From: an uncultured Phycisphaerales bacterium
GTDB lineage: Bacteria > Planctomycetota > Phycisphaerae > Tepidisphaerales > Tepidisphaeraceae
Reading direction: 5' to 3'
DNA length: 64,000 bases
Assembly (NCBI GenBank): GCA_963844715.1
Contig: CAWJPJ010000006.1
Coordinates: 32,001 to 96,000, forward strand
This document shows, piece by piece, positions 247 to 19,637 of the stretch. Under the pieces are notes generated by a model. The model worked only from the letters and a program-made list of their open reading frames with translations, searched no databases and was not told the origin of the DNA. Position 1 is the first letter of the stretch. The number at the start of each line of letters is the position of its first letter. A program made the position numbers and the translations under genes.

Positions 247-546
247 CATCACCCCTGTAGCGTGCTATGCGCCTATCAGCCGCAAAAAAGCTACGAGCCG
301 ATTGGGCCGAGTCAACGCGGTACGCCCACCAGCTCATCGCGCAAAGATCGCGGCTGCCATCCCGCCTACCGCATGAATGATCCAAACGACAGATGCGGCA
401 ACAAGGAGGCCAATCACGAGTATCGCAATAGTCTTCCACCGGACCTTTTTGATATCTTTTTCCATCCACTTCATCTTTAACGGGCCGCTTGCTTCATCAA
501 GCCAGTCGTAACATTCTCCCCCGTCGTCCCTTCTATGAGCCGAGCC

Positions 547-872
547 GTGTCAAGTGTGTTGACGTTGCCAGGGAGCGAGTCGGTCGTTTTAACCTTCTAT
601 TCAGAGCTTCCGCGTCCGGCATGGCGGAAGGGCAAGCCCTCCGTTTGTGCCGGGAATCGCGGGCCTATTCAACTGTACAATGCGGCAGGATGCGGAGGGC
701 AAGCCCTCCGAATGCCCGCCAGCGCGACGCCCATTCTGTAGCGCGAGCTTTGCGAAGGGTTTTGCGCCTCCGATGGCTCAGGGACGACAACGGGCTGTCG
801 CTGATGACGACCGGCAAACTCCGCCAACGCAACATCATTGACCTTTCCTCTTTAGCTGCCTTCTTCCGATCA
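547..872 (-). ncRNA. Candidate bridge RNA / seekRNA of the IS1111-type element (exact ends unknown)
   Basis: Internal loop (726-799) carries two 9-mers matching the two flanks on opposite strands; two near-identical hairpins at 625-643 and 693-710 read G(CUUG)C on the minus strand. Confidence 0.7.
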
Positions 873-1950
873 TCACGCCGGCGTCGGCATTCCCGTCGCC
901 GCCGCGTGGTCTTTCCAATCGGTTCCGTCCGCAACATGGCCCACAGCTTGACCAGCAGCCTCCGGGCCACGGCGACGATGGCAATCTTCTTTCGCTTGTC
1001 GCTGCCGCGGCGGACGTTCTCATACACCTGCTTCATCCAGGTATTGGCACGCACGCCCAGCCAGGCGACCTCCACCAGCAATCCCCGCAGCAGGCGGTTG
1101 CCGGCGTGGCTGATGTGGCCCTGGCGATCGCTTTCGCCGCTCTGCCAGCGCCGTGGCGTCAGGCCCGAATAGCTGCTGACCTGCCGGGCACTCTTGAAAC
1201 GATGGGGATCGTCAATGATCGTGACCACCGCCTCGCTGAGGCGCGGGCCGACCCACGGGGCGGTCCTCAATTGCTTCACGCGCTGATCCGCCCTGGCCAG
1301 TTCCGCCAGCTTCAATTCCACCTGCCTGATCTGTTCTTCCAATCCCTCCAGCAGCTTGCAGTTCCACATGCAACTGGAAACAGCCACAACTGTTCCGCCG
1401 GCGCTGACGCATCCTGCGCCGCCTTGCTCCATTCGACGATTCCCGCCGCCGCCCAGGCTTTGTCACCGGCGGGCAGCTTCAAACCCTGGCGCTCGAAGAT
1501 GGCGCGGATGTTGTTCTTGATCATGGTTCTTCGGCCCACCAGGCCGTGGCGGTATTCGATAAACGACCGCCATTGCCTCACCTTCGTCGCCGGCACGTGG
1601 ACCGTCGGCAGGCATCCCATCTCCGACATCTGCGCCAGCTTCAGGGCATCGGTGCGGTCGGTCTTGTTCTTCACCAGCTTCCACTGCCAACGCTCGTCGT
1701 TGCCGTTGGCGACCTGGATCGGGATGCCCAGTGTTTCGGCTAGGTCGTGCACCCATCCTGCCGCCGGTCCCGCCTCAATCACCAGGCGATCGGGGGCGCG
1801 GTGGGTGAGCAAGTCGTGAATGGCAGCGGGATCAGTGGCCACCTTGCCGAACTCATGTTCGGCGGCTTTGCCTTCCATCGTGCCGTGATCGGTGATATAA
1901 TCCACAAAAACGCTCTTGTTCTTACCGAGATCGATAGCGAGAATCTTCAT
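873..1950 (-). CDS. IS110 DEDD transposase/recombinase, frameshifted near 1355-1380 and 925 (probable indel errors)
   Basis: ILAIDLGK, VIEAG, KNKTDRTDA, PWVGP, YSGLTPRRWQSG, GNRLLR, AIVAVARRLL motifs; GAAAGGA RBS before ATG 1950; one added G gives the ending MLRDGTDWKD..PA* at 873. Confidence 0.9.
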
Positions 1951-2074
1951 GGCCGAGTCCTTTCTCAAAGGATGACGTTTGAGCCGCCCCACGCGGGGTG
2001 AGCTCGTTAATAACCGGGGATTTTATGCTCCGTGTTCAACGTCCCGAGGAAGGCTCGGCTTCATAGTTTCTGTA

Positions 2075-2157
2075 GCTCCGTCGCGTCGGCGTCGGCCCTC
2101 GCCCGTGGAGCGCACGCGCCGGGGGCCGACGCTGATGCGATGGAGCGGAAGGGCGAC
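2075..2157. repeat. Long GC-rich imperfect palindrome (REP-like), insertion site of the IS110
   Basis: GCTCCGTCGCGTCGGCGTCGGCCC pairs with GGGCCGACGCTGATGCGATGGAGC; GAAGGGCGAC (2148-2157) pairs with GTCGTCCCTTC on the far side of the IS (523-533). Confidence 0.75.
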
Positions 2158-2259
2158 TCCCTGGTAGCTCCAGAGCGGAGCGCCGAGGTCCGGCTGTATC
2201 CTTCCACGTCCAGCCATGTCCAGCATCGCGCGGGTGCAACGCCGGCGTGCGCGCTGAAG

Positions 2260-2307
2260 CCCAACCCACTTCTTTTTTAGCTGCTGTAGCTGCCGCCGCC
2301 GTGTTCA
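2260..2307 (+). repeat. Junction repeat J1; other copies at 12071-12116 and partial at 462-479
   Basis: CCCAACCCACTTCTTTTTTAGCTGCTGTAGCTGC vs CCCAACCCACTTCATCTTTAGCCGCTGTAGCCGC vs CCATCCACTTCATCTTTA. Confidence 0.8.
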
Positions 2308-2319
2308 AGACGCGCGGAA

Positions 2320-2721
2320 TTATCCGGCTCTCTTGCCGGCGTGCTGCGCGGCCAGGGCGTCGATGAACTTCAACACGGCCTTTTGATCGTGGGCGGGGAA
2401 GCGCTCGAGCAATTGCATGCGCCGAAGCACGCGGCGGCTGACGCCGTTGCCGTTGGCTTTGTGGGATTGCGCCGGCGCGATGCCCAACAACTCATCGGCG
2501 CTGACGCCCAAAGCCTGGGCGAGTTGGCCGATCATCGCGGCGTGGGGCCTGACGCGGCCGCACTCATAGCTGGAGATAACGGCCTGGATCGTGCCGGCCT
2601 TCTCGGCCAGTTCGATCTGAGTGAAGCCGCGCTCTTTGCGCAGCCGCGCCATCCGCTGGCCGATGGTCTCGGCGTCGGTTCTGCTGCGCGTCGGGCTGTT
2701 GGCGATCCTGGGCATGGGCAC
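2320..2721 (-). CDS. XRE-family helix-turn-helix transcriptional regulator
   Basis: IGQRMARLRKERGFTQIELAEKAGTIQAVISSYECGRVRP...LAQALGVSADELLG. Confidence 0.92.
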   Translation of the reverse strand: MPMPRIANSPTRSRTDAETIGQRMARLRKERGFTQIELAEKAGTIQAVISSYECGRVRPHAAMIGQLAQALGVSADELLGIAPAQSHKANGNGVSRRVLRRMQLLERFPAHDQKAVLKFIDALAAQHAGKRAG

Positions 2722-2800
2722 AATTATACGGGCGACTGGGCGCGGGAGGGGTTGGGGACACCTTGCAAATACAATAGGACGTTGTAATACTGGCTACAAT

Positions 2801-4301
2801 GCGTATACCTATGACCTCGTCGGCAATCGAAAGTCGGACGTCCTAAGCGGAAGCGAGGACGGTACGGCCGGCACGACCACTTACTCATACAACAGCGATA
2901 ACGAACTGACCAGCCAAACCGTCGGTTCCACCACAACGACGTTCACGTTCGACAACAACGGCAGTCAATTGACCAGCACGACGGGAAGCAACGTCACAAC
3001 GAACACGTACAACGTTCGTAATGAACTAAACAGCGTTGCCACCGGCGGCTCGACCACCACCTATGTCTACAACGACGCAGGGAATCTTGTGCAGGAAACG
3101 ACGAGCGGGACGACGACTTACTATCTGGTCGATGACAACAATCCGACGGGGTATGCCAAGCCGATCGAGGTGCGGGTCGGGTCAGCGAGCGGCACGCCAA
3201 CCACGACGTACATCCTTGGTGACCGCGTCATCGGTCAGGCGAATAGCTCCGGCGCCGTGAGCTACTTGCTGACTGACGGCGAAGATAACACCCGCGCTCT
3301 CGTCAGCTCGTCGGGCACCATCACGGCTGCATACAACTACGATCCGTTCGGTGATCCGATTGGCTTTAGCCTCTCCACGGCCTCGACGCGGTTGCTGTTC
3401 CAGCAAACGATGTTCGATGCGCCGTCAGGGTTGAACATCTTCGGCGACGGTCAGCGCGAAGCAGAAGTCGGAGAGGACAACTTCATCGAGGCCGATTCCC
3501 CCGGATACAGCGACAACGTCGATCCATTAACGCTCAACGGATATCTATTGGACGGGGCCAATCCGATCAGCAACGTCGACCCCAGTGGGCACGATCTGAC
3601 CGACATTCTTGTGTCGTTAGGACTAAGCGAAACGATCGCATCGGCGACATCGGGATTCGCAATCAGAGCCGCTATTGGGGGAGCCACAAACGTCGCAATT
3701 CAATGGACATTGACGGCGACATTGACGCCCAACCAATATACCGTCCAGCAGGGCATCTATGATTTTTTAACAGGTGGACTAACGGCTGGCGCATCGAATG
3801 CTCTCATGGCACCACTCAAGTCCATCCTCGGTGGCCTCGGCTTGTCGGAAGCATTTCAGATCCTAGGCAGCGTGTCGGGAGGCTGGATTACTGCAGCAAT
3901 TGGTGACACTATTTCGTATGTTGGACGATCCGAACTATTTAGTCACGAGACACCCTCCGATAAAGAGATTGCCGAAGCCTTTGCATTCTCCCTTGTCGGC
4001 AACGCGATCGGAGGAACGGCAAGCAGCGCTATTCAGTCGCAATTTGCCGACAGCGCGAGAGGCAGCCCCAGAGCATGCTTTAACAGCGTACAATCAGTTT
4101 GAGGCCCGCATAAGCGGGAGCGGAAATGATTTTCTGGAGCTTGTATCTCAAGCTCTCGATCAGGGTTATCCTTATGCTCGGTCGCTGGGACTATATATTA
4201 TTGACAACGTGCAGCCAATTGCGAAGGCCATAGGTTATGGAGTCGAGGGTGCCGTCGATGCCGCGGCAGACTTGCTCAAGGAGGCAATCAACCAGCAATA
4301 G
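2801..4301 (+). pseudogene. Orphan Rhs cassette A: 5'-truncated YD-repeat core plus hydrophobic C-terminal toxin domain (frameshift ~4060)
   Basis: YTYDLVGNR, YDPFG, NPISNVDPSGHD cleavage motif, then Gly/Ala-rich tip; no credible start codon; tip continues in ORF 3900-4301. Confidence 0.85.
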
Positions 4302-4346
4302 CTGAACCCGGCCTGCCTATTTGATTTAAATCGAGCAGAGCTTCCC

Positions 4347-5030
4347 ATGCCGCAAGTATTCAAGATAAACAACTTTTCGACTGCGGATAGTTTAATCGTT
4401 GCCTCAACTGTCGTCGTAATGGCGCTCGGCTTCTTTTTCTCCGCTCGTACGCTGGTTAGGGCAATCGTTGATTTAATAAAGGAAAGAGCCCCAAAGGGGG
4501 CTTGGGAGTGGGCAGGAACTTTCCTCATACTTTGGTTCGTCTTAGTAGCAGTTGCGGCGAGGGCCGCGATTGCCGTCGCCGCGCGCGGTGGTGCGGGTGC
4601 CAGTTCGGGGATGGTCGGGGTCGGTGTGCCCTCTGCAAGTTCCGCGGCCGTGCGCACTTCCGCAGGGAAAAACCGGGCCGGCGGCTGGCTCGCCGTCTCG
4701 ATCATTATGGTTTTTCTGCTGCCCGCCTTATTTGTTCGGACCATCTTGTTTGAGCAGCCGCAACGTATGGCCGTCTCAAATTCCGGAATCGAATTACTTT
4801 ATCGGCTTCCCTGGCGCAACCTTTCGATCAATTGGTCTAACATTAGTGATATCCAACTCGATCGCAAAGAATATTACGTGCAAGGCATCACGAAAGCTCA
4901 CAATTACACGATCGTTATCGATCACGATGGAGCCGAGACTAGGATTGTGACCGATCCGTGGTATGAGGACCAAGTGAATGCCGCGTATCAAGCTGCGAAG
5001 GCGAAGTTAAAAGATTATAAAGGAGAATGA
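4347..5030 (+). CDS. Membrane protein, putative immunity for cassette A
   Basis: Directly after the toxin tip; about three hydrophobic segments then a beta-rich tail (LSINWSNISDIQL). Confidence 0.65.
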   Translation: MPQVFKINNFSTADSLIVASTVVVMALGFFFSARTLVRAIVDLIKERAPKGAWEWAGTFLILWFVLVAVAARAAIAVAARGGAGASSGMVGVGVPSASSAAVRTSAGKNRAGGWLAVSIIMVFLLPALFVRTILFEQPQRMAVSNSGIELLYRLPWRNLSINWSNISDIQLDRKEYYVQGITKAHNYTIVIDHDGAETRIVTDPWYEDQVNAAYQAAKAKLKDYKGE

Positions 5031-5060
5031 AAAAGTCATGTGGCTAGTTGCCGACGCGCC

Positions 5061-8000
5061 TTTAACCCCGACGGCACCGTACAGAGCGCGACGGATGCGG
5101 ATGGCCTGACCACCGCTTACACCTATTATCCCAACGGCCAGCAGGAAACCGTGACGCAAGAATCTGTGTCGGTTTACAATGCAACCACGAGTACGACCAG
5201 CGACTTCAACAATTACGGCGTTCCCGCCGGGCTCTTGATCAGCGAGTCCAGCCTCGGGCCCACCGGCCAGATGGTGCAGCAGTCGTACAACTCCTACTAT
5301 GGCAATGATGTCGCCGCCTCCAGCCCCAGCTACGTGGCGGCCATTCCTTCCGGCAGCTTCGACGTGGCCGGCGAACTGGCCGGCACCACGGACGTCAGCG
5401 GCGTCACCCACTCTTACAATTATGACGCCGATGGGAATCAGATCAGCGACAGCTATGTCTGGCACGATCCTTCCGCTCCCAACGACCCCTCGCAGGACGA
5501 AATCGTCACCACCACAACCGTCTACGACGCCGCCGGGCGGGTCATTTCCACGACCACCGGTACGGTCACCACTTTGAACAACGCGACCCTTGTGTCGGGC
5601 GTCACCACCAGCACCGATTACAACGCCGCGGGCCAGGTGGAATCGACCACCGATGAATACGGCCAGGTCACCCAATACGTCTACGACGCCGACGGCAACC
5701 TCATCCAAACCCTCTATCCCGACAACACCAGCACGGAAACCATCTACGATTCGGAAGGCAGAGCGATCCTGACCACCGATCGGCATGTCGTGGGCGACTC
5801 CGGGAATGCCACACTCACTGTTTATAACAGCCTGGGCCAGGTTGCCGAGACCCAGCGCGTCGCCGACGTCGCCGCAACCGTCGGCGCGGTATCCGGAATG
5901 ACTGGTGTGGACCAGGTCACGGCGGTCAGCGGCGCCGGCCTCACTTCCACGGAAACCGGCGGGATTTACGTCTGGGCCGTGAACCCGACTTTCACCGGCT
6001 GGTTCTCGCAGACCAGCACCACCTATAACCCCGACGGCACGGTCGCCAGCACCACGGATGCGGACGGCCTGACCACGGACTACACCTATTATCCCAACGG
6101 CCAGCAGGAAAGCGTCACGCAGGTGAGCGTTCCGGTGTATGGCGCGACTGGCGGCGTCGAAAACCTCACCACGACCTACCAGTACAACTCCATGGGCCAG
6201 CAGAGCGACGTGACCGATCCCCTCGGCAACACGACCTCGTATGAATATGATCCCCTCGGCCGGCTGATCTCCACCGGCTACGCCCCGGCGGTCAGCGTGG
6301 GGTCCACCTCCCTCGTCTCGACCACGACCAGCGAAACCTACGATCCGGCGGGGAATAAGATCACCGAGACGGATCAGCTTGGCCGGGTCACGCAGTATAA
6401 GTATGACGATGCCGGCGATCTGATTGAAGTGGATCAGCCGGAGGTTTTGAACCCGGCCACCAATACGATGACCCCGCCGACGACGAGTTACGTCTACGAT
6501 CAGTACGGCGACGAGTTGATGCAGATCGACGCCAACGAACAGGCGGCGTATCAGGCCTGGATCAGCGCCGGCAACACGCCGGAAAGCTTCGCCGGCCCGG
6601 CCACGCGGTATACCTACAATGCCCTCGGCCAGGAAACCTCGGAAACGCTCCCCGACGGCGAGCAGGAAACGACCCAGTACGATCAATTCGGGCGTGTTTC
6701 CTACTCCGTCGACTTCGACGGGAACGTGACGGCTTACACCTACGACGACTCCGCCACCGGCGACGGCCGCGTGACGGGAGAATATTTCTTCCTCCCCGGT
6801 GTCGTGTTCGAAAGCAACAGCGGCGCCGTCATCACGACGAACGCGTCGGAGAGCACAACTTACACTTACACCTTGCTCGGGCAGCAGGAGAGCGTGACCG
6901 ACTCGAGTCCCACCGGCGCCTATACCGCCGATGGCGCGACGACTTACACATACGACGCCAGTGGTAACGTGATTGAGGAAAACACGCCGGAAGGGATTAT
7001 CAATTATTATTACAATGCCCTGAACCAGCAGACGGACATGTGGACGGGGAACGTCACGTATGCCAATCGCGACACCGCCGAGACGTGGACGCAATATGGC
7101 TACGATTCCCTCGGCCGCCTGACCACAGTGACCCAAAGCCGCCTCAATGACCAAACCGTGAATCTGGTGACCACCTACGCCTACGACGCCAACGGCAACA
7201 AAGCCTACGAAATGGACCCTAATGGGGACATCACCACGTATGTATATGATGCACAGAATCGCCTCACCGGCGAGTTGGTCAAGAATGGCAGCACGACGCT
7301 TTATAGCGTGACATACACGCTGAATAAGGACGGCACCCGCGCCAGCGCAACGGAGATGAACGGGTCGACTTCGATCAGCACCAGTTGGACCTACGACAAC
7401 CTCGACCGCCTGCTCGCCGAAACGATCGTCAGCGGCGGCACTTCAACCGATACCTATACCTACGATCTGGTCGGCAACATCGTCACCAAGAACCACGTCG
7501 TCGACGGCTCCGGGGCCGAAACAACGACGTATCACTACAACGGTGACAATGAACTTTACCAGCAGGTGGACAGCGTCACCGGTACGACCAACTTCACCTA
7601 CGACGCGAACGGAGACCAGACCGGCAGCACAGCGAGCACCACGATCACGACCTACACGTATGACCTCGAGAACAAGATGATCTCCGAAGCCGTCAACGGC
7701 GCGACGCAGGCGAGCTACATTTATGACGAGGCAGGCAACAGGGTTCAGGAGACCGTCGGCAGCACGACCAGTTACTACCTGACCGACGACGATAATCCGA
7801 CGGGTTATGCCGAGCCGTTGGAGGTCAGAACCTACACCGGCTCAACCCCATCCCTTGGTGCCGCGTCGCTGTCGATGACGTATCTGATTGGGGACAACGT
7901 TTTCGGGCAGGTGAACTCTTCCGGGACGGCCAGTTACTTCGTCATCGACGGCCACGGCAGCACCCGCGCTCTGGTCAGTTCTACAGGCTCGGTAACCGCC

Positions 8001-8956
8001 ACATTCAACTACTTTGCCTATGGCAACCCTTTGGGCTCCTGGAGCCTGAACACCGCCGGCACGATCTTTCTCTATGGCGGCGACGCCGTGTACGACCCCG
8101 CCAGCGGGCTGTACATGAACGGCGACGGCACGCGGGATCGGTCTGGGTTTGAGTTTATTCAGAGGGATACGAGCCTTGGGGAAAACGCGGATCCGCTTAG
8201 CCTCCACACGTATTTGTACGCGGATGCGGACTCGATCAACGGGTTTGATCCAAGCGGGCACGATGATCTCGATGATATCGAGAATTTTATTGGCAACTTT
8301 GCCATCGCGGCTTTCCAGTCTTCGACACCGTACATGCTATTGCATTACACCTATGAGAGTAATTTCATGCCGAATTGGAATAATGCCGTCGGCGATGTCA
8401 TGCATGGATTTGCTAGCATTGGGTTATCATTTCCCAGCGGGTCCGCGTCGGCGATCGCCGCTCAGATCTATCAAGGGTTGCAGAACTTTAACTATTTGCG
8501 CCAAATATCGCTTCGGTCAGTGTTTCGGGGGGTAAGCTTGCTTCCTTTACTATGAATGGACTACTGATGCAATACGGGATGTCGCGATTTAATGCTGCTA
8601 ATCCCACCGTGCAGCTGGTGCAGGGACCCGGCCAATACGAGCTCACAGGCGTGACTCTTGGGAGTCATATGCTCGTAGGCGTCCGTCGGTGGAGAGTGCT
8701 GATAATTCGGCAGTCGCCGCCGGTGCTTTCCGTCGAAACGGAGGCATATGAGCAGAACAGTAGCTATGCAAATGCGGCCGGCCGTTGGGCTCTCGGGCAA
8801 TCGGCACAATACGCGGTCTGGGACAACTATTTGAACAATATCGGGGCGGCTTGGGTTACAAAGGGTGCCACATTAACGCCTGCAAGGCATATCCCTGAAG
8901 TAGACGTCGGCGCTGTAAATCCGTGGAGGGCGCAGTTGCCGCTTACGCTACAGTAG
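5061..8956 (+). pseudogene. Orphan Rhs cassette B: long 5'-truncated YD-repeat region plus C-terminal domain (frameshift ~8500-8550)
   Basis: Many YD repeats (YDAAGR, YDPLGR, YDSLGR); DSINGFDPSGHD; tip apparently continues in ORF 8552-8956. Confidence 0.85.
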
Positions 8957-8968
8957 AACTGAGGAACG

Positions 8969-9580
8969 TTGCGAACCTTTTTGATCATAGTTGCGAGCGT
9001 ACTATTGTCATTGTTAATTACCTTCGCAATACTTATTGCGTTGCCTCGCGCCATCTTGAATCATGAGGAGGATATGCTCGACCGTATGGCGAAGTGGCGG
9101 GATCAGGCAGTCGCAAGCCCGCACAGTCAGGAAGCGCTGAATGAGTTGTTGGGCGAGTTGCATTCGAGTGATGATATTGAGAGGGGGAACGCGGCTGCAT
9201 ACCTCGGCCAGGTTGGCAGTCGCGCACCTGATATCGCCACCTCCCTGGTTATGCCTCTCGTTCAGACTTTACAAAACGACGATCCGGGGGTCTCAAAATC
9301 GGCCGCCGAGGCGCTCGGTGAAATCGGTCCGGCGGCAATTCAAGCCGTGCCCGCCCTAATCGCATCTGTCGTGAAATACCCTAGTTCGAGCCCGGGGTAT
9401 GAATCGGCCCAGGCTTTGGGCGAAATTGCTGATCCGGGCGATTTGAAAGTGCATCAAGTACTAAATAACGCGGCTAGTGGAGGAGACCGATTAATGCAGT
9501 CGGACGCCCAGCAGGCGATTGACGCGCTCAAATCGCGCCGGCAGTCGGCCGTGACCCGGACTTCGCCGAAACCGGTGTAG
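8969..9580 (+). CDS. HEAT-repeat protein with N-terminal membrane anchor, putative immunity for cassette B
   Basis: Hydrophobic N-terminus; AAAYLGQVG, AAEALGEIGPAAIQAVPAL, AQALGEIA repeats; GAGG RBS before TTG. Confidence 0.75.
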   Translation: MRTFLIIVASVLLSLLITFAILIALPRAILNHEEDMLDRMAKWRDQAVASPHSQEALNELLGELHSSDDIERGNAAAYLGQVGSRAPDIATSLVMPLVQTLQNDDPGVSKSAAEALGEIGPAAIQAVPALIASVVKYPSSSPGYESAQALGEIADPGDLKVHQVLNNAASGGDRLMQSDAQQAIDALKSRRQSAVTRTSPKPV

Positions 9581-9686
9581 TGGCCCAGCACTTTGTATGG
9601 CGGTTTTGTTCTCAGGGTGTTAGGTATTTTTGGATACGTTGTAGCGGCCCGGCAGCTTGTCGGGCGGTTTTGTTCTCAGGGTGTTA
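9576..9686 (+). repeat. Junction repeat J2, tandem: full 64-bp unit 9576-9639 and a unit from 9640 cut by IS5
   Basis: TGTAGYGGCCCRGCA..TTGT..GGCGGTTTTGTTCTCAGGGTGTTAGGTATTTTTGGATACGT; third copy 17396-17459. Confidence 0.9.
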
Positions 9687-9836
9687 GGGCCTGTCTGATG
9701 AATCCAAAATCCTGAAATAGCGACGGATCATGGCGAGCTTGGCCATGGCCTGAAAGTTCACCGCCAGTTTCTCGTAACGCGTGCCCAGGCGGCGATTCTC
9801 CTTCATCCAATTCACGCAACGCTCCACCACGTTCCG
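9687..9836 (-). mobile_element. 150-bp right-end fragment of the 887-bp IS5 element
   Basis: Matches the reverse complement of the 3' end of the copies at 43702, 45988 and 61045 (one synonymous-type base aside); starts with IR GGGCCTGTCTGATGAATC after TA. Confidence 0.92.
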
Positions 9837-11526
9837 CGTCAGTTACATCCTCAACGCCGACGGCACCAGAAAGTCCGACGCCGAGACCGAGTTACAGCCC
9901 GGCGGGACCACGGCGACCCTATCTACGGCATGGACGTATGACGCCCTGGACCGGCTGACGGGCGAGGCGATCACCAGCAGCTTGTCGGGTGGAAGCCAGA
10001 CCGAGACCTGGTCGTACGATATGGACGGCAACCGGGTGAAGCAGGTCAAGGTCGCCGGCGGCGTGACCGACACCACGACTTACACGTACAACGGCGACGA
10101 CCAGATGACCCAACAGGTGGACAGCGCCACCGGGACCACCACGTTCGGGTATGACGCCAATGGCAGTCAGACGACCACGACGGTCGGCGGCACGGTCACC
10201 CAGACCGATTCCTACGACGTGCGGAACCGGCTCCAAAAGGTCGTCAACAGTTCAGGCACGACGACCTACGTTTATGACGACGCCGGAGACCGGGTTCAGG
10301 AGACGACCGGCAGCACGACGACCTACTACCTGATCGACGACAACAACCCGACCGGTTACGCCAAGCCGATTGAAGTGCGCGTCGGGTCGGCGACAGGCAC
10401 GCCCACCACCACGTACATCCTGGGCCTGGACGTGATCGGGCAGGCGAACAGCAGCGGCGCGGTCTCGTACCTGGTCATCGACGGCCGGGACGATACGCGG
10501 GCGCTGGTCAATTCCAGCGGAGCGGTGACCGCGACGTTCAACTACGATGCCTTCGGCAACCCGATCGGGTTCACCGCCGCGACCGCGCCGACGGTCTTCC
10601 TGTTCCAGCAGATGATGTTTGACGCGCCGTCGGGGACGAACTTCACCGAGAGCCGCCAGGAACCGCTGGGCGCGCCCTACTGGCTCGAAGCGGATTCGCC
10701 GGGATACAGCAACAATGACGATCCCCTGACGCTTAACGGCTACCTGTTTGATGGCGTGAATCCCATCAGCAACATCGATCCGAGTGGGCATGACTTCTCA
10801 TTAGGGGATATCCTGGTAACGGCCGGTATCAGCGCCACACTTATGGGCTCGCTATCGGGCGGTTTGGCTGCTGTAAGCGGCAGGAATGTAATTTACAACG
10901 CGGTTGTAGGCGCTGGCGGCGGTTTGGCTCTAGCTTCTGCGTTCTTTGATGGGCAATTGCCGGAGGTTGGAGCGAACGCGCTCGTGGTATCAGCCATGAC
11001 CTCAATTTTGCTGGCGACCCTTGATGCCGTCACGAAAGGTCGGAGTTACGTACAAAATCACTTGACCACCTACGAGAGTGTAGCGGTGGAAACCTTCTCA
11101 TGGGCTTCTATCTCAGAAGCGTGGTTTCCAGCAAAGAGCTATACGTCGTTAGATGGTAATCAGGACGAAGGGGTCGGAAAGCTCCTTCAGGATATAACTC
11201 TTGCGTTCGGACAAGGTGTAGCGGAAGGTGTGGCGTTGCTTGGTGATGTGTCATTGCTCGCCAGCGGCGCAATAACTCAATCGACAGCCAAGATTGAGCT
11301 GACGGATGCGTTTAAAACGATCGCGGGAAATCTTCTGTCGTCGGGCGTTTCTTTGGCAGTCGATACACTGTTCATGTCATCATTTGGAGGTGAGGTTCCC
11401 TCCGATGTTAAATCCGACGTCATTACGGATTTGAAGGGCGGCTTATTTTCCAATACGCTGTCGGCGGGAATCAACGACATTTGCAGCGAACTTGCCGACC
11501 TGATTGTTGATAAAGTCGCAGGCTAA
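9837..11526 (+). pseudogene. Orphan Rhs cassette C: truncated core plus hydrophobic C-terminal toxin domain
   Basis: WTYDALDRL, YDAFGNP, NPISNIDPSGHD; core close to cassette A; Gly/Ala/Leu-rich tip. Confidence 0.87.
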
Positions 11527-11542
11527 CTGTGGTGGCAACCAT

Positions 11543-12091
11543 ATGCGGGCCGTCAATCGCGATACCTTGGAAGTAGGGGGAGTTTTTGTTTGGGTTGAGA
11601 CTTGGAAACTTCGACAAGCGATAGCTGGTCCCTTTTACGTTTCAAAAGTAGCTAAACGCGTCATCTGGTGGGCGTTGGGCTTCCCGCTAGCACTTATGGC
11701 AGCGCTTGGCTTAGGGACGATTTGCGGACGGCGCGGGCAGTTTAGCCCTTTATCCGACGTTTTCTATTTGCTCGGAATCTGGCTTGTCGTAGGCGGGATT
11801 ACCGGCCTCGCATTTGAGTTTGCCGCGCTTAGCATTCAGATATACAAAAATCAGGTCTATGTAATTCAGTCATATCGCGTATTTTGGCGTTTATTATTTA
11901 GCCATAAGACGCTAGTTCGGGTCACGCCTGTCGCCCCGCAGGTTACACGCATGGAGTTTTACTCACAGGGACGGGCGCGCCCGAAGATGGTTCGGGCCTG
12001 CCCTTTTGAAGCGGCCAAGGTCGTCGAATGGTTCCAAAACGCCGGAATCAATGTTGAACTGGAGAGCGGCCCCAACCCACTTCATCTTTAG
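11543..12091 (+). CDS. Two-TM membrane protein, putative immunity for cassette C
   Basis: Starts 16 bp after the toxin stop; two hydrophobic segments; last codons (NPLHL*) are supplied by repeat J1. Confidence 0.65.
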   Translation: MRAVNRDTLEVGGVFVWVETWKLRQAIAGPFYVSKVAKRVIWWALGFPLALMAALGLGTICGRRGQFSPLSDVFYLLGIWLVVGGITGLAFEFAALSIQIYKNQVYVIQSYRVFWRLLFSHKTLVRVTPVAPQVTRMEFYSQGRARPKMVRACPFEAAKVVEWFQNAGINVELESGPNPLHL

Positions 12092-12116
12092 CCGCTGTAG
12101 CCGCGGCCATATTCAC
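12071..12116 (+). repeat. Junction repeat J1 between immunity C and cassette D
   Basis: Aligns with 2260-2307; homology to the Rhs B core starts at 12119. Confidence 0.8.
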
Positions 12117-12602
12117 GCGGCAGGCAACAGAGTTCAGGAGACCGTCGGCAGCACGACCAGCTACTACCTGACGGATGACAACAACCCGACGGGTTATGCC
12201 GAGCCGTTGGAAGTCAGGACCTACACCGGCTCAACGCCATCCCTTGGCGCCGCATCGTTGTCGATGACGTATCTAATCGGGGACAACGTCTTCGGGCAGG
12301 TCAACTCTTCCGGGACGGCCAGTTACTTCGTCATCGACGGCCATGGAAGCACCCGCGCCCTGGTAAGTTCAACTGGCTCGGTAACCGCCACATTCAACTA
12401 CTTCGCCTACGGTAACCCATTGGGTTCCTGGGGCCTGAACACCGCCGGCACGATCTTCCTCTTTGGCGGCGACGCCGTGTACGACTGTCAGCGGCGCGCA
12501 AAACCGGCCACTGAGGGCGCGCGCCAAAACCGGCCATTTTGAAGCACAGGAGATTCGATCATTACCGTTGGTTCCCGGTTCTAACCGGGAGACGACGGCA
12601 CG

Positions 12603-14134
12603 ATGGCGAATCAGCTCAAAATGGCGGAAGTTCAAGCAATTCTTTCACTTGCACGCAATGGTTGGTCCAACCGGCACATCGCCCGCCAGCTTGGCGTTCA
12701 CCGCGAGACGGTTGGACGCCATCTCCGGCTGGCGGCGCGGGAAGATTCAAAACCGGCCAGCGCCGCCCTCGGCTCGGAGGGCGCGCCCACCGGGTTGGTC
12801 AGCGCCGCCAGCGCCTGGCGTGAAGTGATCGTTCAGAAGCTGGGCATGGGGCTGACCGCCCAGCGGATTTACCAGGACCTCTGCTCCGATCACGGTTATG
12901 CCGGCAGCTATTACAGTGTTCGCCGGCTGGTTGGGAAGTTGACCTCGGCGGCGCCAACGCCATTCCGGCGGATGGAGTGCGAGCCGGGCGCCGAGGCCCA
13001 GGTCGATTTTGGACGGGGCGCGCCCATCGTCGGTTCCGACGGCAAGAGGAGAAGCACCTGGGTCTTCCGCATCGTGCTGAGCCACAGCCGCAAGGGGTAC
13101 GCCGAGGCGGTGCACCGTCAGACCACCGATGACTTTCTGCGTTGCCTGGAGAATGCGTTCGCGCACTTCGGCGGATTGCCGCGGACGCTGGTGATCGACA
13201 ATCTTCGGGCGGCGGTGAAGCGGGCGGACTGGTTCGACCCGGAGTTGTGTCCCAAGGTCCGCTCGTTTGCCGAGCATTACGGAATCGCCATTCTGCCGAC
13301 CAAGCCCTACACGCCCCGGCACAAGGGGAAGATCGAACGGGGCATCGGCTATGTGAAGGGCAACGCCCTCAAGGGACGGACCTTCAGTTCTCTGGCCGAT
13401 CAGAACCAGCATCTTCAGGCCTGGGAAGCGACCGTCGCCGATACGCGCATCCATGGAACGACGCGCCGGCAGGTGAAGGAAGTGTTCCAGCAGGCGGAGC
13501 AGCCGGCGCTCTTGCCGTTGCCGGCGGCGAGATTCGATCTGTTTGCCGAAGCGTTGCGCAGCGTCAGCCGGGACGGACACGTGCAGGTCAAAGGCGCGTA
13601 TTACTCGGTCCCACCGGAGTTTTTGGGCCGGCAGCTTTCGGCGCGCTGGGATGGGCGCTGATCCGCTTGCTGGATCAGAAGATGCGCCCCGTCGCGGTGC
13701 ACGTGCAGCGTCCGCCGGGGACCTTCTCCACGCTGGATGCCCATATCCTGCCGGAGAAGATCAGCGGGATCGAAAAAGGAACGGCCTGGCTCCTGCGCCG
13801 GGTCGAATCCATCGGACCGCACGCCACGCAGTGGGCGCGGTCCATGCTCCAGAATCGCGGCATCGAGGGCGTGCGCGTGCTCCTGGGCCTTATGTCCCTG
13901 ACGAACAAGCATTCCCGCCGCGTCATCGAGCAGGCCTGCCAAGTCGCCCAGGGGCATGGGGCGTATCACCTCCGTTCATTGCGCCAACTCCTCGAACAAC
14001 AGAATCCGCCCGCCCTTCAGCGGAACTTCGAGTTCGTCCAAGAACATCCGATCATCCGCGACCTGGGCGACTACGGCCGATTCGTGCGACAGGCCATTAC
14101 CCAACAACCACCTTCACAGGAGTCCATTCCATGA
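12603..14134 (+). CDS. istA: IS21 transposase IstA (frameshift ~13655)
   Basis: N-terminal HTH; EAQVDFG, LVIDNLRAAV, PRHKGKIERGI DDE motifs; TGA overlaps istB ATG. Confidence 0.92.
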
Positions 14135-15012
14135 GACCTTCATTGTTACAGACGCTCAAACAGCTTCGGCTTTCGGGCCTGGCCCAGAGCCTTGAAGTCC
14201 GATTGAGCGAGGCGGCTGGCAATCGGCTCGATCACGCCGAGTTTTTGGAACTGATTCTCCAGGACGAACTGAACGTGCGGTCCAGCCGATTGGTGAGCCG
14301 CCGCGTCAAGGCCGCCCTGTTCGGCGAAGTCAAAAACCTCGACGAGTTCGACTTCTCCTTCAATCCCTCCATCAAACGCAAGCAGATCCACGACCTGGCC
14401 GGCTGTCAGTTCATCCGCGAAAAAGCCGACGTGCTTCTATTGGGCCCACCCGGCGTCGGCAAAACGTTCCTGGTCCAGGCCATCGGGCATCAGGCGATCA
14501 AAGCCGGACACCTGGTTCTGTACCGCTCCATCTTCGATCTGGCCCGCGACTTCCTCGGCGACGACGAACTCGGCCAGCAGGACAAAACGCTGAATCGTTA
14601 TCTCAAACCCGACCTGCTCATCATCGACGACATGGGAATGCGACAACTTCCGCGTCGCTCCGGCGAATGCCTGCTGGAGATCATCATGCGCCGCCATGAG
14701 AACCGCTCGACGATGATGACCAGCAACCGGCCGCTGGAAGACTGGGCCAAGCTGATCGGCGACGTCCCGGCGGCCACGGCGATCCTCGACCGCTTCCTTC
14801 AGCACGCCACCCTCCTCAACATCACCGGCAAAAGTTATCGTTTGCGCCATGGCGGCGCCGGGGAGGCCGTGGAGGCGAAGCCTTCCACAAAGGCAAATTC
14901 AAAAGGACGGCGGAGTACCGCCGACGATGGAGGGTGCTCCCCTCCGGAAGACACCGTGGCAGAAAGCACGGTCTCTTCTTGTGCTGGGGCGCCCGCCGAT
15001 CAGGCGTCCTGA
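14131..15012 (+). CDS. istB: IS21 helper ATPase IstB
   Basis: FDFSFNP, GPPGVGKT, LLIIDDMG, TSNRP, AILDRFL. Confidence 0.95.
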   Translation: MRPSLLQTLKQLRLSGLAQSLEVRLSEAAGNRLDHAEFLELILQDELNVRSSRLVSRRVKAALFGEVKNLDEFDFSFNPSIKRKQIHDLAGCQFIREKADVLLLGPPGVGKTFLVQAIGHQAIKAGHLVLYRSIFDLARDFLGDDELGQQDKTLNRYLKPDLLIIDDMGMRQLPRRSGECLLEIIMRRHENRSTMMTSNRPLEDWAKLIGDVPAATAILDRFLQHATLLNITGKSYRLRHGGAGEAVEAKPSTKANSKGRRSTADDGGCSPPEDTVAESTVSSCAGAPADQAS

Positions 15013-15714
15013 TGCGCGGCTGATAACTCAACAGAAAGTTGCATGGAACTGAACGGATGATGTATACGAAGCGTCACAACACTGGCCGGTTTTGAGCGCC
15101 CATTGATGGCCGGTTTTGGCGCGCCCCGCGACAGTACGACCCCGCCAGCGGCCTGTACATGAACGGCGACGGCACGCGCGATCGGTCGGCGTTTGAGTTT
15201 ATTCAGCGCGATCCGACCAGTGGAGAAAATGCTGATCCGGCGAGCCTGCATACCTACTTGTACGCGGATGCGGATCCGGTCGATGGCAGCGACCCAACTG
15301 GATTCGACGACTATGGTGATGACTTGGAAGTCGGTGGGCCTGACACTGGAAATCTCGGCATAGGAGGACCTGAAGCCACCGTCGGCACTATAGAAATGAC
15401 TCCCGGCGACACATCAGCGTTCCAGACACTCGAATCGCAAGAAGCCACGTGGCGAACTCGGGGATGGGATATAGCAGCCGACATGCTCTATCACTTTTTG
15501 TATGGCCAAGGACAAGATTTAACTTCCCTCCCGAATACGGATATTGCGGAATTAGCAAACGATTCACATTTTGTGGACGTTCTAATTAACGGAATTCAGG
15601 CCCAATATCCGAATGCGATGAACGGAAATCAGATCAACATTCCTACACCCCTGAAGATCAATGCGCGGTTTCTGGCTCTAGACGATCAACTTGCTTGGGC
15701 GTTCGGTAGCCTAA

Positions 15715-16608
15715 GAGCCTCTAACAAAAATGCGAATGGAGCCTGTTCCAACAGATCATTGCCTCACCCACGGTCATGAACGCGGCGTGGATGTCGGGCC
15801 GTTTTTCGTAACGGACTCGCAGTCGGCGATTCTGATGCAACCAACTCAGCGTACGCTCCACCGGCCAGCGGGTTTTGCCAAGACCACTTCCGTGCGGGCG
15901 GTTGCGTCGGGCCAGCAACGGGCGGCTGCCACGCTGACGCAACGCCTTTCGGTGCGGTTCGGAGTGATACGCCCGGTCTCCCTGCACCACCTCGAACCGC
16001 CAGCGCGGCCGGCCCGGTTTGCCCGAGACCTTTGGAATCGCATCGATCAGCGGCAGCAGTTGCGTGATGTCGTGGCGGTTGGCCGCCGTCAGGAGGGCAA
16101 CCATCGGCGTGCCGTTGCCATCGGTCAATACATGGTGCTTGGAACCGTTTTTCCTGCGATCTACCGGGCTCGGACCCGTTTTTTTCCCCCGTGCACGGCC
16201 CGCACGGAAGCAGAATCCACCAAGGCCCGCGACCAGTCGATGGCATTCGACCGCCGCAATCGATTCAGCAATAGTCCGTGCAGCTTCGTCCAAACCCCAC
16301 GATGGTTCCAATCGCGCAGTCGACGCCAGCAACTCATGCCGCTGCCGCATCCCATCTCCTGGGGAAGGTATTCCCACGGAATGCCGGTTTTGAGCACGAA
16401 CAGAATACCCGACAACGCCGCGCGATCGTCCAGCGGCGGCCGGCCGCGCTTTCCTGGACCACTGCGGTGCTTGGGAAGCAGGGGTCGGATCAACTCCCAA
16501 AGCTCGTCGGTCACCAACGGCTTGGTCATAAAGCCCTCCATGGCTAAGACCAAGCCGTATTGTCCGATCAACCATAAACATGGGGAAGTGCATTTTTGTT
16601 AGAGGCTC
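15715..16608 (-). mobile_element. IS5-family element (two-ORF, IS427-like), 894 bp
   Basis: Perfect 19-bp IR GAGCCTCTAACAAAAATGC; TAA duplicated at 15712-15714 and 16609-16611. Confidence 0.95.
15721..16529 (-). CDS. IS5 transposase, two ORFs joined by a probable programmed -1 frameshift at GGGGGAAAAAAAC (~16178-16190)
   Basis: LVTDELW, TGIPWEYLP, LVDSAS, GSKHHVLTD, GDRAY, RWPVERT, RRLRVRYEK. Confidence 0.9.
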
Positions 16609-16939
16609 TAAATATCGAAGCGACAGGTTGGTTTAAAGCGACGAGGGTGCCCAAAAAAGCCGGTTCATATCAATTGCATTATGATCTATCAGTTAAGATA
16701 AGTAAGTTCTATAATTTCTATGCTACCAATTTATGGCATATATTACCGTCGTTTGTCGCCCCGATCGATTATGCATCTGCGTGGACGTTGGAAAACGATG
16801 GTGTGGCCCAGCCGTACAAGGTAAACGTTGACTTCAAAATGAATTCTTAGAACGATTCCAAGGCTGAGGCAGGAGTCCGCCTATTGGCCTGCACAGCGGA
16901 GGCAATTAGGATGCTGCTGCAGTTCCTCCCGATAAAGGC

Positions 16940-17350
16940 ATGTGCGACGCAGAGAGGGCACCGCGCGAATTGAATTTACGTAGAAAAATCATCGCGTCCG
17001 CTATATGCGTTACCGTTCTGGCAATTGTCTGGATGGTCTGGCACTTGCGTACGCGAAATAATGTCATACAAGCGGTCGACGATACGACTGCGGCACCCCT
17101 CCCCATTGAGACCGATATTGACCTCGCATTCGTAGATCTTGCCGATCCGACTTTGAACTATGCCTTATGGAGTCCAGATGTGCCGGGCAACGATATGTTG
17201 GGGGTCACGACGATCTTAAACGTGAGATGGAGCAGACCTTTGCGAATCTTCGTAAGCTCCAAGGGGTACGACAAGGTCCCGGTCATCGTTGACGATGACT
17301 CACCGACTCTGATCATTGTGCCCCTGCACAAGAAAGAGGACACAAAATAA
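16940..17350 (+). CDS. Single-TM hypothetical protein, putative immunity for cassette D
   Basis: Follows the toxin tip; RRK then hydrophobic helix; VSSKGY..V.V beta-rich tail. Confidence 0.55.
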   Translation: MCDAERAPRELNLRRKIIASAICVTVLAIVWMVWHLRTRNNVIQAVDDTTAAPLPIETDIDLAFVDLADPTLNYALWSPDVPGNDMLGVTTILNVRWSRPLRIFVSSKGYDKVPVIVDDDSPTLIIVPLHKKEDTK

Positions 17351-17395
17351 CCCGAGGAAGAGTCGAAGAGATCAGGAATGTTGTAGTGTAGCGGC

Positions 17396-17459
17396 TGTAG
17401 CGGCCCGGCAGCTTGTCGGGCGGTTTTGTTCGCAGGGTGTTAGGTATTTTTGGATACGT
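17396..17459 (+). repeat. Junction repeat J2, third copy, preceded by stacked TGTAG/TGTAGCGGC (17382-17395)
   Basis: One mismatch to the 9640 unit over its length; 3' part identical to the 9576 unit. Confidence 0.9.
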
Positions 17460-17587
17460 GTATGGTGTTCATATATGACACAAGGAACTCAAAATGGGCG
17501 GGAGAGGACTTTTGGGATGCGAATTATCGCCTTGAGTGCGCGGAATCGGCGCGGAACGCTCTTTGACAATTGAGTAAGCATCCTCCG

Positions 17588-18877
17588 TCAGGCGGCGCGT
17601 CGCACGGTGATGTGGACCACCGGCAGCCCAGGATCGCCGCGGCAGTTGACGCGGCGAATGCGGATGTACGGCTTGAGCGGGTCGCGGCAGCGGATAGGGC
17701 CCGGCTCCGGAATCGCGATTCCTTGCCAGGCCTCATCTGGCGTTCTGCCATCCAGGGCGCTGTGCGGCCGATGTTGATTGTACCAGTGCCGATAGTCATC
17801 CAACCGCCGCTGTAGTGCCGGTATCGATAGTCCGCACAGGACGAGGCTCCACCAGATGCGGAAGGTGCGGAACGCACGTTCGATCTTGCCGTTGAGATAA
17901 GGCGCCCGGACGCGGCCTTGGACGTGATGAATGCCGCGGCGCTTCATGTCGGCGTGAAAGCGGCGGCGGAACTGTGGGCCGTGGTCAGTAATGACAAAAT
18001 GCGGCATGCCCTGCTCCTTGGCGGCGCGATGAACCAGGGCGGTCATCTCGCGATGGCACGGCGTGCGCGAATAGATACGTAGATGCAGGAGCCGCCGAGA
18101 AAAGCCGTCGAGGAGGGCGGCAAGCGTAAATTTGAACCAGAGGATGCGGAGGGAAGTAAGGTCCAAATGCCAGACGCGGTTGGGATGCTTAGGCAGGAGC
18201 AGATGGTGTGGCTGAACGCTGGCGATCGCGGCCATGGGCGGCCGCGGCCGGCGCGGCCGCTTTGGAAGCGCTTCTCGGATGACGCGTTGCACCGTGGATC
18301 GGCTGATGGCGATCCCGGCGGCGCACGATATGGCGGGCAATCGAGCGGGTACCCAACTCCGGCTCCGGGCAGAGCCGCTTCAGTTCATGAACCGTCCATC
18401 GGACCAGATCGTCGATGCGGTTCCAGACGACCGCATCGGCGAGGAGTGCACGTTGCCGCGTCCTTCGCTGGCTTTGATCCAGGATCGGACGGTATTGGGA
18501 TGCAGGACAAAACGGCGTGCGGTTTTGCGGATGCTCCAGCCGCGTATGCGAAGGATTTGAAAGATGGCCAATCGCTGCTCAGGACCATAATCGGGTCTTT
18601 TGTGCGGCGGCATTTGATGCCGCTGAGCCCGAAGGATCGCCAGTTCGCGCCGGAGGAGTTCCGACCCAGTCCGGGCATGGTCACGTTGCATCAGCAGACG
18701 CAGGACAGGCGAGGCCGCGGATGCCAGGCGAGTTCGGGCTAACTGATACGCTTGGCTGAGCACGGTAGCGACGGTATCAACAAAGCGCAGGGCATATGCG
18801 GTAGATATCGACGGCACGCGGCGCTCCAGAAGAGGGGTCGGCGCGGGCAATCTAACGGCGCATCGAATGTGGATCAA
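17588..18877 (-). CDS. DDE integrase-core (rve) transposase with N-terminal HTH, IS481-like; frameshifts ~18320-18430
   Basis: WSIRKTARRFVLHPNTVRSW; PNRVWHLDLT, LLDGFSRR, ITDHGPQF, NGKIERAFRT, WYNQHRPHSALDGRTP. Confidence 0.85.
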
Positions 18878-18898
18878 AAATGCGATGGGGAAGCGACA

Positions 18899-19187
18899 AG
18901 ATTACCGTCGACCAGACCGTCGACCTCTACGACGCCGGCGGCAACCTGCTCGAGACACAGCTCCACGATTCAAAGGGCAATCTCCTCAGCGATTCCATCT
19001 ATACGTATACGACGACGAGCGACTTCAACAGTTACGGCGTTCCCGCCGGGCTCTTGATCAGCGAGTCCAGCCTCGGGCCCACCGGCCAGATGGTGCAGCA
19101 GTCGTACAACTCCTACTATGGAAACAATGTCACCGGTTCCAGCCCCAGCTACGTGGCCGGCGAACTGGCCAGTACCATGGACGTGAG
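18899..19187 (+). pseudogene. Rhs internal fragment E
   Basis: TTSDFNSYGVPAGLLISESSLGPTGQMVQQSYNSYYG nearly identical at DNA level to ~5193-5340. Confidence 0.85.
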
Positions 19188-19189
19188 CG

Positions 19190-19306
19190 ACGATCGAGCA
19201 AGCTCGGTAAATGGTCTTTGAGTACATCGAAGTGTTTTACAATCGCCAGAGACGTCACTCGGCGATAGGCTACAAAAGCCCCGAAGCGTTCGATGCAAGC
19301 CTCAAT
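19190..19306 (+). pseudogene. IS3-family transposase C-terminal remnant
   Basis: VFEYIEVFYNRQRRHSAIGYKSPEAF. Confidence 0.85.
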
Positions 19307-19597: not shown

Positions 19598-19637
19598 GAT
19601 AAGGGCGAGGTCACAAGTTCGAATCTTGTCAGGCCTA
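19598..19637 (+). other. 3' half of tRNA-Ile(GAT); att-like boundary of an integrated island
   Basis: GATAAGGGCGAGGTC ACAAG TTCGAAT CTTGT CAGGCCTA: anticodon onward with perfect T-arm; no D-arm or 5' acceptor strand upstream. Confidence 0.8.

Follow-up and report, generated by a model that had tools for sequence, protein, structure and literature searches.

Genes for tyrosine recombinases or integrases reportedly lie next to toxin/immunity arrays in the 2019 rAID work of Ross and colleagues. Changes of the Rhs and CdiA C terminus, together with the orphan arrays, have so far been attributed to homologous recombination via a hypothetical circle; in the accessible part of Jackson et al. (2009; PMC2935791), rhs C-terminal displacement proceeds through such a postulated circle, whose origin is left open. 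The available text of Ruhe et al. (2016; PMC4927057) finds integrase and transposase genes among the orphans and suggests site-specific recombination, that of Zhang et al. (2012; PMC3482391) places XerC/D beside poly-immunity loci, and the visible portion of a bioRxiv manuscript (10.64898/2026.07.13.738213) cites Martinkus et al. (2026, Curr Biol) for Xer-dependent systems by Rhs poly-immunity arrays. Here we describe a 64,000-nucleotide stretch of DNA from an uncultured Phycisphaerales bacterium (the window; positions 32001–96000 of contig C6 in the 4.55-Mb host genome, G000), which is the decayed distal part of an array of Rhs C-terminal ends (tips) likely built by an integrative element. 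The element encodes an XRE-family repressor, a primase-ATPase and a tyrosine recombinase. It shares with the array reports a tyrosine recombinase or integrase gene adjoining toxin and immunity genes, but those reports, as far as their available text goes, name no element, primase, end structure or site within a toxin gene. With the 2009 model, as given in the same accessible part, it shares tandem tip arrays, an old tip shunted downstream and a circle in which the tip is accompanied by a core fragment and the genes in between; what differs here is a recombinase, a primase-ATPase and a fixed junction.

The DNA to the left of the window (C6:1–32000) begins with the 3' portion of a large Rhs gene with its tip and SMI1/KNR4 immunity gene, after which come more tips. 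Two near-complete element copies, 90–96% identical, lie between these tips: E1 at C6:~11480–17640 and E2 at C6:~23550–29800. The XRE gene is on the minus strand and is followed on the plus strand by genes for a DnaG-type CHC2/Toprim primase, a P-loop ATPase and the tyrosine recombinase. XRE, CHC2 and Toprim were matched; the Walker A and B motifs of the ATPase were read off its translation, and the protein had no match among Pfam, NCBIfam or PHROG families. An earlier note on this DNA had suggested inspecting the island's left arm for a recombinase, and one is indeed present at C6:27877–28950, with all of the catalytic residues R-K-H-R-H-Y (R, K, H-x-x-R, H, Y) intact in E2; a second copy lies at C6:~15700–16760. 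The recombinase scored 406.9 bits against PRK01287 (NCBIfam), above the cut-off of 371, and stayed below the cut-offs for chromosomal XerC (220 vs 335 bits, TIGR02224), chromosomal XerD (226 vs 330 bits, TIGR02225) and IntI integrase (107.8 vs 265 bits). A third element copy, with left module and XRE gene only, is found in the window at 2070–2793, and a fourth relic sits beside an Rhs fragment at C6:535 kb. In all four copies the repeat that the earlier note named J1 lies just past the XRE stop codon; J1 is the left (XRE-side) flank of the element.

Two scans returned at least 565 and at least 583 relatives, which gave 76 and 80 loci; the family counts that follow hold among the matches listed. 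The hosts of these loci belong to Myxococcota, Proteobacteria, Acidobacteria, Planctomycetes, Verrucomicrobia and others. Of the copies with more than 4.5 kb of upstream sequence, 42 of 51 in the first set and 33 of 40 in the second kept the gene order XRE, primase, ATPase, recombinase. Rhs sequence was found in 34/61 and 18/52 loci having at least 3 kb of other DNA, using an Rhs profile seeded on the first locus set, and in all 52 loci concerned it was on the recombinase strand, with one locus showing an extra match in opposite orientation. The Rhs background in G000, 4 of 451 windows, is an underestimate because the profile missed most of the Rhs cores in that genome. Pfam searches of 279 of the 555 flanking open reading frames (ORFs), chosen by hand, identified CdiA, Hint, EndoU, Ntox28 and HNH tips, immunity families and small toxin-antitoxin modules. 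In annotated plasmid records, repeats of this unit follow cdiA or FHA genes, and some units carry unrelated cargo (ParDE, PIN or RelE modules, relaxases). Relaxase genes occur between the immunity gene and XRE in four loci (TrwC in L047, L054 and L059; MobA/L in L056), and none was found in the element copies of G000. Four loci have in common a non-coding stretch with an inverted repeat upstream of mobilisation genes (L047:2500–3320, L059:1700–2330, L068:4860–5200, L073:4590–5200), which is a candidate origin of transfer (oriT) for these units. In three further loci (L031, L044, L055), recombinase and right end stand beside Rhs with no primase or XRE gene upstream, as reduced forms of the element. 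No genes for helper-phage packaging or interference were present among the annotated genes of L099–L101, for which no dedicated search was made. Around the host the distribution is patchy, with the recombinase in 0 of 40 close relatives (E ≤ 1e-60) and in 14 of 400 other genomes of the phylum (E ≤ 1e-80). The left end showed no strong conserved motif across phyla in 43 non-redundant XRE flanks.

The right end, downstream of the recombinase gene, consists of four GCRTCNGG boxes at offsets 0, 33, 67 and 101, and was detected in 57 of 72 copies with a model trained on 26 of them. About 8 bp after the last box lies a site, TTG-6 bases-CAAAG, inside which the toxin coding sequence starts. The toxin-side columns were outside the scoring matrix, and CAA was present in 18 of 36 sites compared with a background of 2.6%. 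When the frozen matrix was applied to held-out metagenome loci, 42 of 68 copies scored and 28 of these were new; the new sites carried C in 24 cases, A in 25 and the full CAA in 16 (background, 2.0%). In 26/28 of them a reading frame starting from the junction ran for 60 codons or more without a stop, compared with 7/28 on the reverse strand and 26% in shuffled sequences. A fixed reading-frame phase at the junction was not supported, with at least two phases seen.

Where the junction falls in the toxin depends on the host: at TGKERD, GEQYD, ARYY, DPIG or VENN, in the Hint domain, or at AAK just before the toxin domain. The 12-mer to the right of the junction recurs, with at least 11 of 12 bases matching, in the upstream flank of 11 of 24 units and in none of 24 on the reverse strand, whereas the 12 nt to its left match at only 2–7 of 12 positions. 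In 6 of the 11 units with a recurring 12-mer, no more than 29 of the next 60 nt match. The same core site is thus found at the element end and in an intact target gene, as also seen in L015 and L051; in the upstream toxin gene the site is in frame, and its conservation is weak. Near-identical right ends are followed by different tips (L072/L075/L076/L081). What is conserved as the crossover is the right end of the element. No window tip has kept this end; in G000 it was found at C6:17507, 19422 and 29669. The E1 right end is joined inside an IS110-family element in the same register, which points to a relaxed target. A second IS110-family element follows the recombinase gene (C6:17643–19110) and is in tandem at C7:950500–956320; it and the IS110 of the left module, described below, both carry the element motif GCRGCTAAAG right behind the transposase gene.

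Copies of whole units were also found. L015, from the cultured Allorhodopirellula solitaria CA85, and L051 contain exact tandem units of tip, immunity gene and element, joined at the right end (7101 bp, 99.93% identical, and 7496 bp, 99.98% identical), and in both the intact gene and the older tips have only 10–13 bp in common. The duplicated unit includes tip and immunity gene in L015, L051 and L100. A circular 11,289-bp Lonsdalea record holds only genes of the system, although its annotation is incomplete, and both of its tips start at the Rhs DPIG motif behind the right end. Terminal repeats were present in 10/60 whole contigs of at least 6.5 kb and in 0/57 shorter ones. The earlier note had also proposed searching raw reads for circles or alternative junctions. 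In a contig of sequencing run X1, from the source habitat, TATAGC links the E2 right end to a site in the core that lies 8258 bp upstream; the assembly does not contain this link, which may not represent a circle. The tandem duplications, the circular record and the X1 join are all compatible with a predicted circular intermediate.

From these sequence comparisons we consider it probable that the element would integrate into toxin genes and bring with it a replacement tip and immunity gene. The recombinase would assemble on the four boxes, and strand exchange between this end and its counterpart in the toxin gene upstream would free a circle made of core fragment, tip, immunity gene and element. 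Copying of the circle would fall to the primase-ATPase, and in units that carry a relaxase this enzyme could move it. Re-integration at the target site of an Rhs or cdiA gene would then fuse the incoming tip in frame and displace its predecessor to a position downstream, behind a right end, and J1 would remain when the rest of a unit is deleted, sometimes probably through the recombinase acting at a secondary site.

The window can be laid out as remnants of such units; the tips, immunity-like genes, left-module copies, repeats and tRNA fragment given below are all on the plus strand. It opens (1–246) with the 3' part of an immunity-like gene (C6:31785–32246), without a Pfam match, belonging to the tip downstream of E2. 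A diverged left-module copy follows at 255–479, running from TGTAG to a J1-like end at 462–479 with a spacing of 211 bp, compared with 174–204 bp in three other copies. Next is an IS110-family element (528–2070, minus strand), inserted at the CT of ..CC/CT/GTAGCTCC, which is the start of the left module. All three genomic copies of this element are at one CT (window 528–2070, C6:9944–11486 and C6:535716–536962), and a contig from X1 shows an identical join at the left flank of E2; it is a sequence-targeted IS110 with a known target. The relic element E3 begins with a left module (2071–2310) that includes a long hairpin at ~2075–2146 (z = −5.3) and J1 at 2260–2307, just beyond the stop of an XRE-family repressor gene (2320–2721, minus strand) that is 86% identical to that of E2. 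The XRE/primase intergenic region (2722–2793) is joined at ~2790 directly to an Rhs core, and E3 is without primase, ATPase, recombinase and right end.

Tip A (2793–5030) comprises an Rhs core fragment, a C-terminal domain and an immunity-like gene (4347–5030). Tip B (5040–9580) has a long core fragment, 90% identical to the main Rhs gene, a C-terminal domain and a HEAT-repeat immunity-like gene (8969–9580). The caveat of the earlier note, that the A/B junction lacks the TGTAG motif, holds. At this junction (5034–5063) the sequence TAG-TTGCCG resembles the family's commonest crossover hexamer and may be a worn right-end tail. Beyond tip B, the repeat named J2 is present in tandem (9576–9688; 64 bp + 49 bp) as an isolated end of an rve/helix-turn-helix (HTH) DDE element, and it abuts the terminal 152 bp of an IS5-type element (9685–9836, no strand assigned), which is cut off and joined to Rhs core at 9836. 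Full copies of this IS5-type element are at 43691–44590, 45977–46877 and 61034–61936, with ~28 copies genome-wide. Tip C (9836–12091; immunity-like gene 11543–12091) starts at the core position TATA/GCGTCAG, as do the join between the E2 right end and its own tip and the X1 join between right end and core, and the IS5 fragment occupies the place expected for a right end. A J1 scar (12071–12119), the end of a left module, is fused both to immunity gene C and to the core of tip D (12115–17350; immunity-like gene 16940–17350), which is split by an IS21-family element (12483–15101) and an IS5-family element (~15750–16600). Then come J2 with the remainder of a ~190-bp terminus (17382–17587), an IS481/IS3-like HTH + rve (DDE) transposase gene that is single copy in the genome (17588–18877, minus strand), a candidate far end of this DDE element at ~18893 (..GCGACA) and a short Rhs core fragment (18894–19193).

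The start of tip D is a target-like site directly after J1 (top 1.7% of core positions), that of tip A comes after the XRE promoter (top 3.9%) and that of tip C ranks in the top 15.5%, with the register set by eye in each case. In Enterobacter, tips with a right end and tips lacking one start at an identical site, so such losses of the element do occur; the tip starts in the window hint weakly at similar losses, some of them perhaps by the recombinase at a secondary site.

A 43-bp copy of the 3' half of tRNA-Ile(GAT) at 19598–19640 (93% identical to C3:9684–9726) is likely the right boundary of the island; no whole tRNA was found in the window. At C3:9684–9760 the sequence reads from tRNA-Ile into large exported-protein genes toward the contig start, and C6 may therefore adjoin C3, which would make a single island of the whole array. 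No integrase was recognised among the long ORFs of C3:1–9684. Elsewhere in the genome, a second Rhs locus (C7:941500–950500) contains an immunity-like gene in duplicate, an end resembling J2 and what is left of the region that follows the recombinase, and no trace of the element was seen at the Rhs gene at C8:906–911 kb or at the small remnant at C6:669 kb. Further right in the window, a MazE-like and a MazF/PemK-like ORF (26206–26475 and 25826–26296, minus strand) form what by eye is a type II toxin-antitoxin module, and 27255–31289 (minus strand) encodes a 1344-aa exported protein with 306-bp repeats and the N-terminal motif VEPLECRMLLS, which we take to be of planctomycete type.

The earlier note had read J1 and J2 as dedicated joints with a common TGTAG core at which Rhs cassettes are assembled, and much of what it observed was found again. 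J1 is at 2260–2307 and 12071–12116 with a partial copy at 462–479, and it supplies the final codons (..GPNPLHL and stop) of ORF 11504–12091, immunity gene C, just as J2 supplies the TAG stop of ORF 8969–9580, immunity gene B. The three J2 positions (9576, 9640 and 17396) are correct, but a uniform length of 64 bp is not, as the second copy measures 49 bp because the IS5-type end begins at 9685. The doublet TAGCNGC-TG-TAGCNGC covaries as described (T/T at 2278, C/C at 12089, G/G at 17389) and has exactly three occurrences in the whole genome, all in the window; the triple TGTAG stack at 17382–17400 is present too. The sequence given for J1 needs correction, as the copy at 2260 reads CTTCTTTTTTAGC and not CTTCATCTTTAGC, and J1 is not a three-copy repeat: the genome holds six, with further copies outside the window at C6:11690, 23738 and 535512. 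These three and the copy at 462 lack the doublet, which is thus present in 2/6 copies. Nor is the DNA after each repeat always unrelated, since window 2070–2793 is 81% identical to C6:23564–24247, the left part of the mobile element, and the claim therefore fails at 2260.

Within J1, TAGCYGC is one instance of the motif TTTAGCYGC, of which C6:1–52000 contains 21 copies compared with 0.85 expected by its share of the genome; the motif occurs in 126 of 156 related loci, with 421 copies compared with 24 in shuffles. Its putative binder, at a guess, is the primase-ATPase or the repressor. J1 and J2 have nothing in common except a 9-mer, and do not form one class: J1 is a flank of the recombinase element and J2 is most likely the terminus of the DDE element; the repeats are remnants of two mobile elements and not cassette joints. 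TGTAG as a shared crossover was rejected as stated, with 4/6 J1 copies lacking the doublet. The 9-mer resembles the right-end crossover consensus TGTWGCSSC (11 of 36 sites within one mismatch), a likeness that may exceed chance in the case of J1. REP/RAYT repeats (TGTAG plus hairpin) were considered and rejected on copy number, with four copies of J2 and four of the hairpin, all at Rhs loci. Folding of J1 and J2 is weak (z from +0.7 to −2.3), and Rfam models, with no attC model among those run, matched nothing in L001, in L002 or across the window. What stands of the earlier proposal is that an apparently undescribed site-specific process acts on the cassettes; J1 and J2 are not its joints.

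J2 is the first 64 bp of the ~190-bp stretch downstream of the HTH + rve transposase gene, and its 5' TGT is invariant in 9/9 aligned copies. With a profile, J2 was picked up elsewhere in the class, and 14 sites were traced in 8 genomes, 9 of them following an Rhs tip and a small gene, and 6 with the rve/HTH gene or a remnant directly inward. Plain BLAST of J2 against 400 class genomes gave 17 weak matches, several by chance, and the exact J2 pattern had 0 matches in metagenome contigs. J2 is also present in G018, G028 and G405, where the recombinase was not found. From its occurrence there, the transposase inward and the bias to Rhs ends, J2 is most likely an IS-type (insertion sequence) end, placed non-randomly. 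The earlier note had named as its own refutation that the repeats might be ends of a known IS inserted at random; for J2 an IS-type end is now the most likely identity, but the placement is not random. Most likely, then, J2 is the TGT terminus of a transposase element, IS481/IS3-like in kind, that favours the ends of Rhs immunity genes. In L122 (G405:C13), a ~290-bp unit made up of J2 and the 3' end of the rve gene is tandemly repeated, which looks like reinsertion of the element at its own end. An exact 16-mer is common to window 9652–9667, 17408–17423 and the main Rhs core (C6:7905–7920). J2 as a guide to the Rhs core was rejected: there is this one match, at C6:7905, and seven other J2 copies have none in their own genomes. 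J2 as a MOB-F oriT, which it resembles, was likewise rejected: neither the 76 recombinase loci nor the DNA upstream of their relaxases gave a match to the J2 profile, and scanning with a loose motif was not informative.

The DDE element might, beyond this, be a second tip-associated system, one that would insert just after Rhs immunity genes, often by its own old end, and that may mobilise tips through intramolecular transposition. We regard this as possible, though less than an even prospect, and compatible with integration by the recombinase element. It would account for the preference of J2 sites for Rhs tips and for the transposase directly inward noted above, for tandem ends like that at 17382–17400 in G000, G028, G405 and G663, and for Rhs fragments that begin 130–200 bp after J2 in G744, G018 and C7. 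However, two of the three J2 sites in G018 are not at Rhs, three other sites have no Rhs within 1.5 kb, and the break points behind J2 vary between cases; similarity at the candidate far end is weak, and no target duplication across the element was found.

Several observations weigh against integration by the recombinase element as proposed above. A right end was not detectable in 15 of 72 copies, 26 of 68 held-out copies fell below the score threshold and 13 of 24 units had no match of at least 11/12. The junctions of G000 itself fit the cross-phylum matrix badly, with 90% of core positions scoring better than E2 and 48% better than E1'. Both E1 and E2 are frameshifted, possibly through read errors, although the recombinase of E2 is complete. 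All five window tips lack a right end, and where tip B and the final Rhs fragment begin is not accounted for. The model gives no route by which a new immunity gene is joined to the left module. Collapse of tandem arrays could have produced both the terminal repeats and the circular record, and the X1 contig differs at 6 positions in 341 bp, so it could come from another strain or a paralog instead of a circle; all four runs are from one study, of which X1 is possibly the source sample. Finally, many tips keep hundreds of core bases, so RecA could integrate them.

This last point leads to an alternative in which the recombinase makes only the junction of right end and core, during excision or first capture, and RecA integrates and exchanges tips via core fragments, as in the 2009 model. 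Tips in G000 retain 0.4–3 kb of core at 65–93% identity, and 5 of the 11 units with a matching site show continued homology (36–56 of the next 60 nt), which fits such a division of labour. In contrast, tips that start at the toxin domain share only 10–20 bp (L017, L156 and L198; GGCGCAAAAT in L039/L045/L048/L051), which is too short for RecA given its homology-length thresholds, and we consider this alternative unlikely. It is quite improbable that the element is purely selfish, using toxin genes as a safe landing site with tip exchange as a side effect and the arrays as fossils of repeated insertion. The units with ParDE, PIN or RelE modules and relaxases would suit it, as would the 27/61 and 34/52 loci with no Rhs match, but the duplicated units include tip and immunity gene, the junction lies inside the toxin coding sequence and varied tips stand behind near-identical right ends. 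Least probable, and very much so, is the original proposal of one enzyme capturing or trimming cassettes at J1 and J2 through a TGTAG(C)NGC core: the doublet is confined to three cassette ends, the 9-mer is like the right-end consensus, and left module and J2 each open with TGTAGC shortly after an immunity gene, yet most J1 copies lack the doublet, the two repeats are otherwise unlike, J2 exists in three genomes where no recombinase was found and homology of J1-type modules begins 10–14 bp before TGTAG.

Taken more broadly, we lean slightly toward a general reading in which self-replicating, sometimes mobilisable elements across phyla use polymorphic toxin genes (Rhs, CdiA, Hint-type) as their attachment site and re-arm the host with each integration, trading toxin domains in frame through 10–20 bp and without RecA. 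They would be the machine behind C-terminal displacement and orphan arrays, and the Phycisphaerae may have a second, DDE version that ends in J2. For the displacement step this would supply a candidate enzyme together with a replication module, a defined end of 120 bp and a prediction of where the crossover falls. A further suggestion is that many genes annotated 'xerC' and 'DNA primase' near toxin loci belong to a single mobile family, and that reactivation is still possible for tips nearly devoid of core sequence. A tyrosine recombinase site that is one-sided and has a relaxed target inside a gene would be of mechanistic interest of its own. A term search found primase unmentioned in the available text of a tyrosine recombinase survey (PMC8138268) and of PMC11278526 and PMC4758244. 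Within the partly accessible literature, neither the element nor its end or target was found described; Martinkus et al. (2026) or Additional File 1 of PMC3482391 may overlap. The genes of the element are known to annotators, and its end, the in-gene site and its role are apparently new.

Compared with more familiar systems, the element combines features that are usually separate. Prophages and integrative elements can insert inside genes and supply replacement ends, and P4, phage-inducible chromosomal islands (PICIs) and integrative mobilisable elements (IMEs) are satellites or mobilisable elements. Like these, the element has a tyrosine recombinase, a repressor gene divergent from the primase-ATPase and integrase genes, as in P4 and the PICIs, a putative attachment site in coding sequence and, in some copies, a relaxase. 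It differs from gene-end-replacing elements in having conserved boxes on one side only and a target position that depends on the host, and, unlike theirs, its replacement end encodes a different toxin and immunity protein, so that integration would change function. The IS481/IS3-type elements end in TGT..ACA; the J2 element has the HTH + rve DDE transposase of that type and the invariant 5' TGT, and departs from it in its strong bias to the 3' end of Rhs immunity genes. Shufflons of the R64 type (Rci, sfx) invert segments in place and so change the C terminus of an exported protein. Here too a tyrosine recombinase would alter the C terminus of an exported protein at a short in-frame site, but the tips are all in direct orientation, not invertible segments, each comes with a replicative module and units are tandemly duplicated. 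Integrons (IntI, attI, attC) build arrays that grow at the proximal site via circular cassettes. Ordered arrays with proximal growth through circular cassettes would be common to both, whereas here there is a recombinase gene in every unit, the IntI score is below the cut-off and the crossover falls inside the receiving gene.

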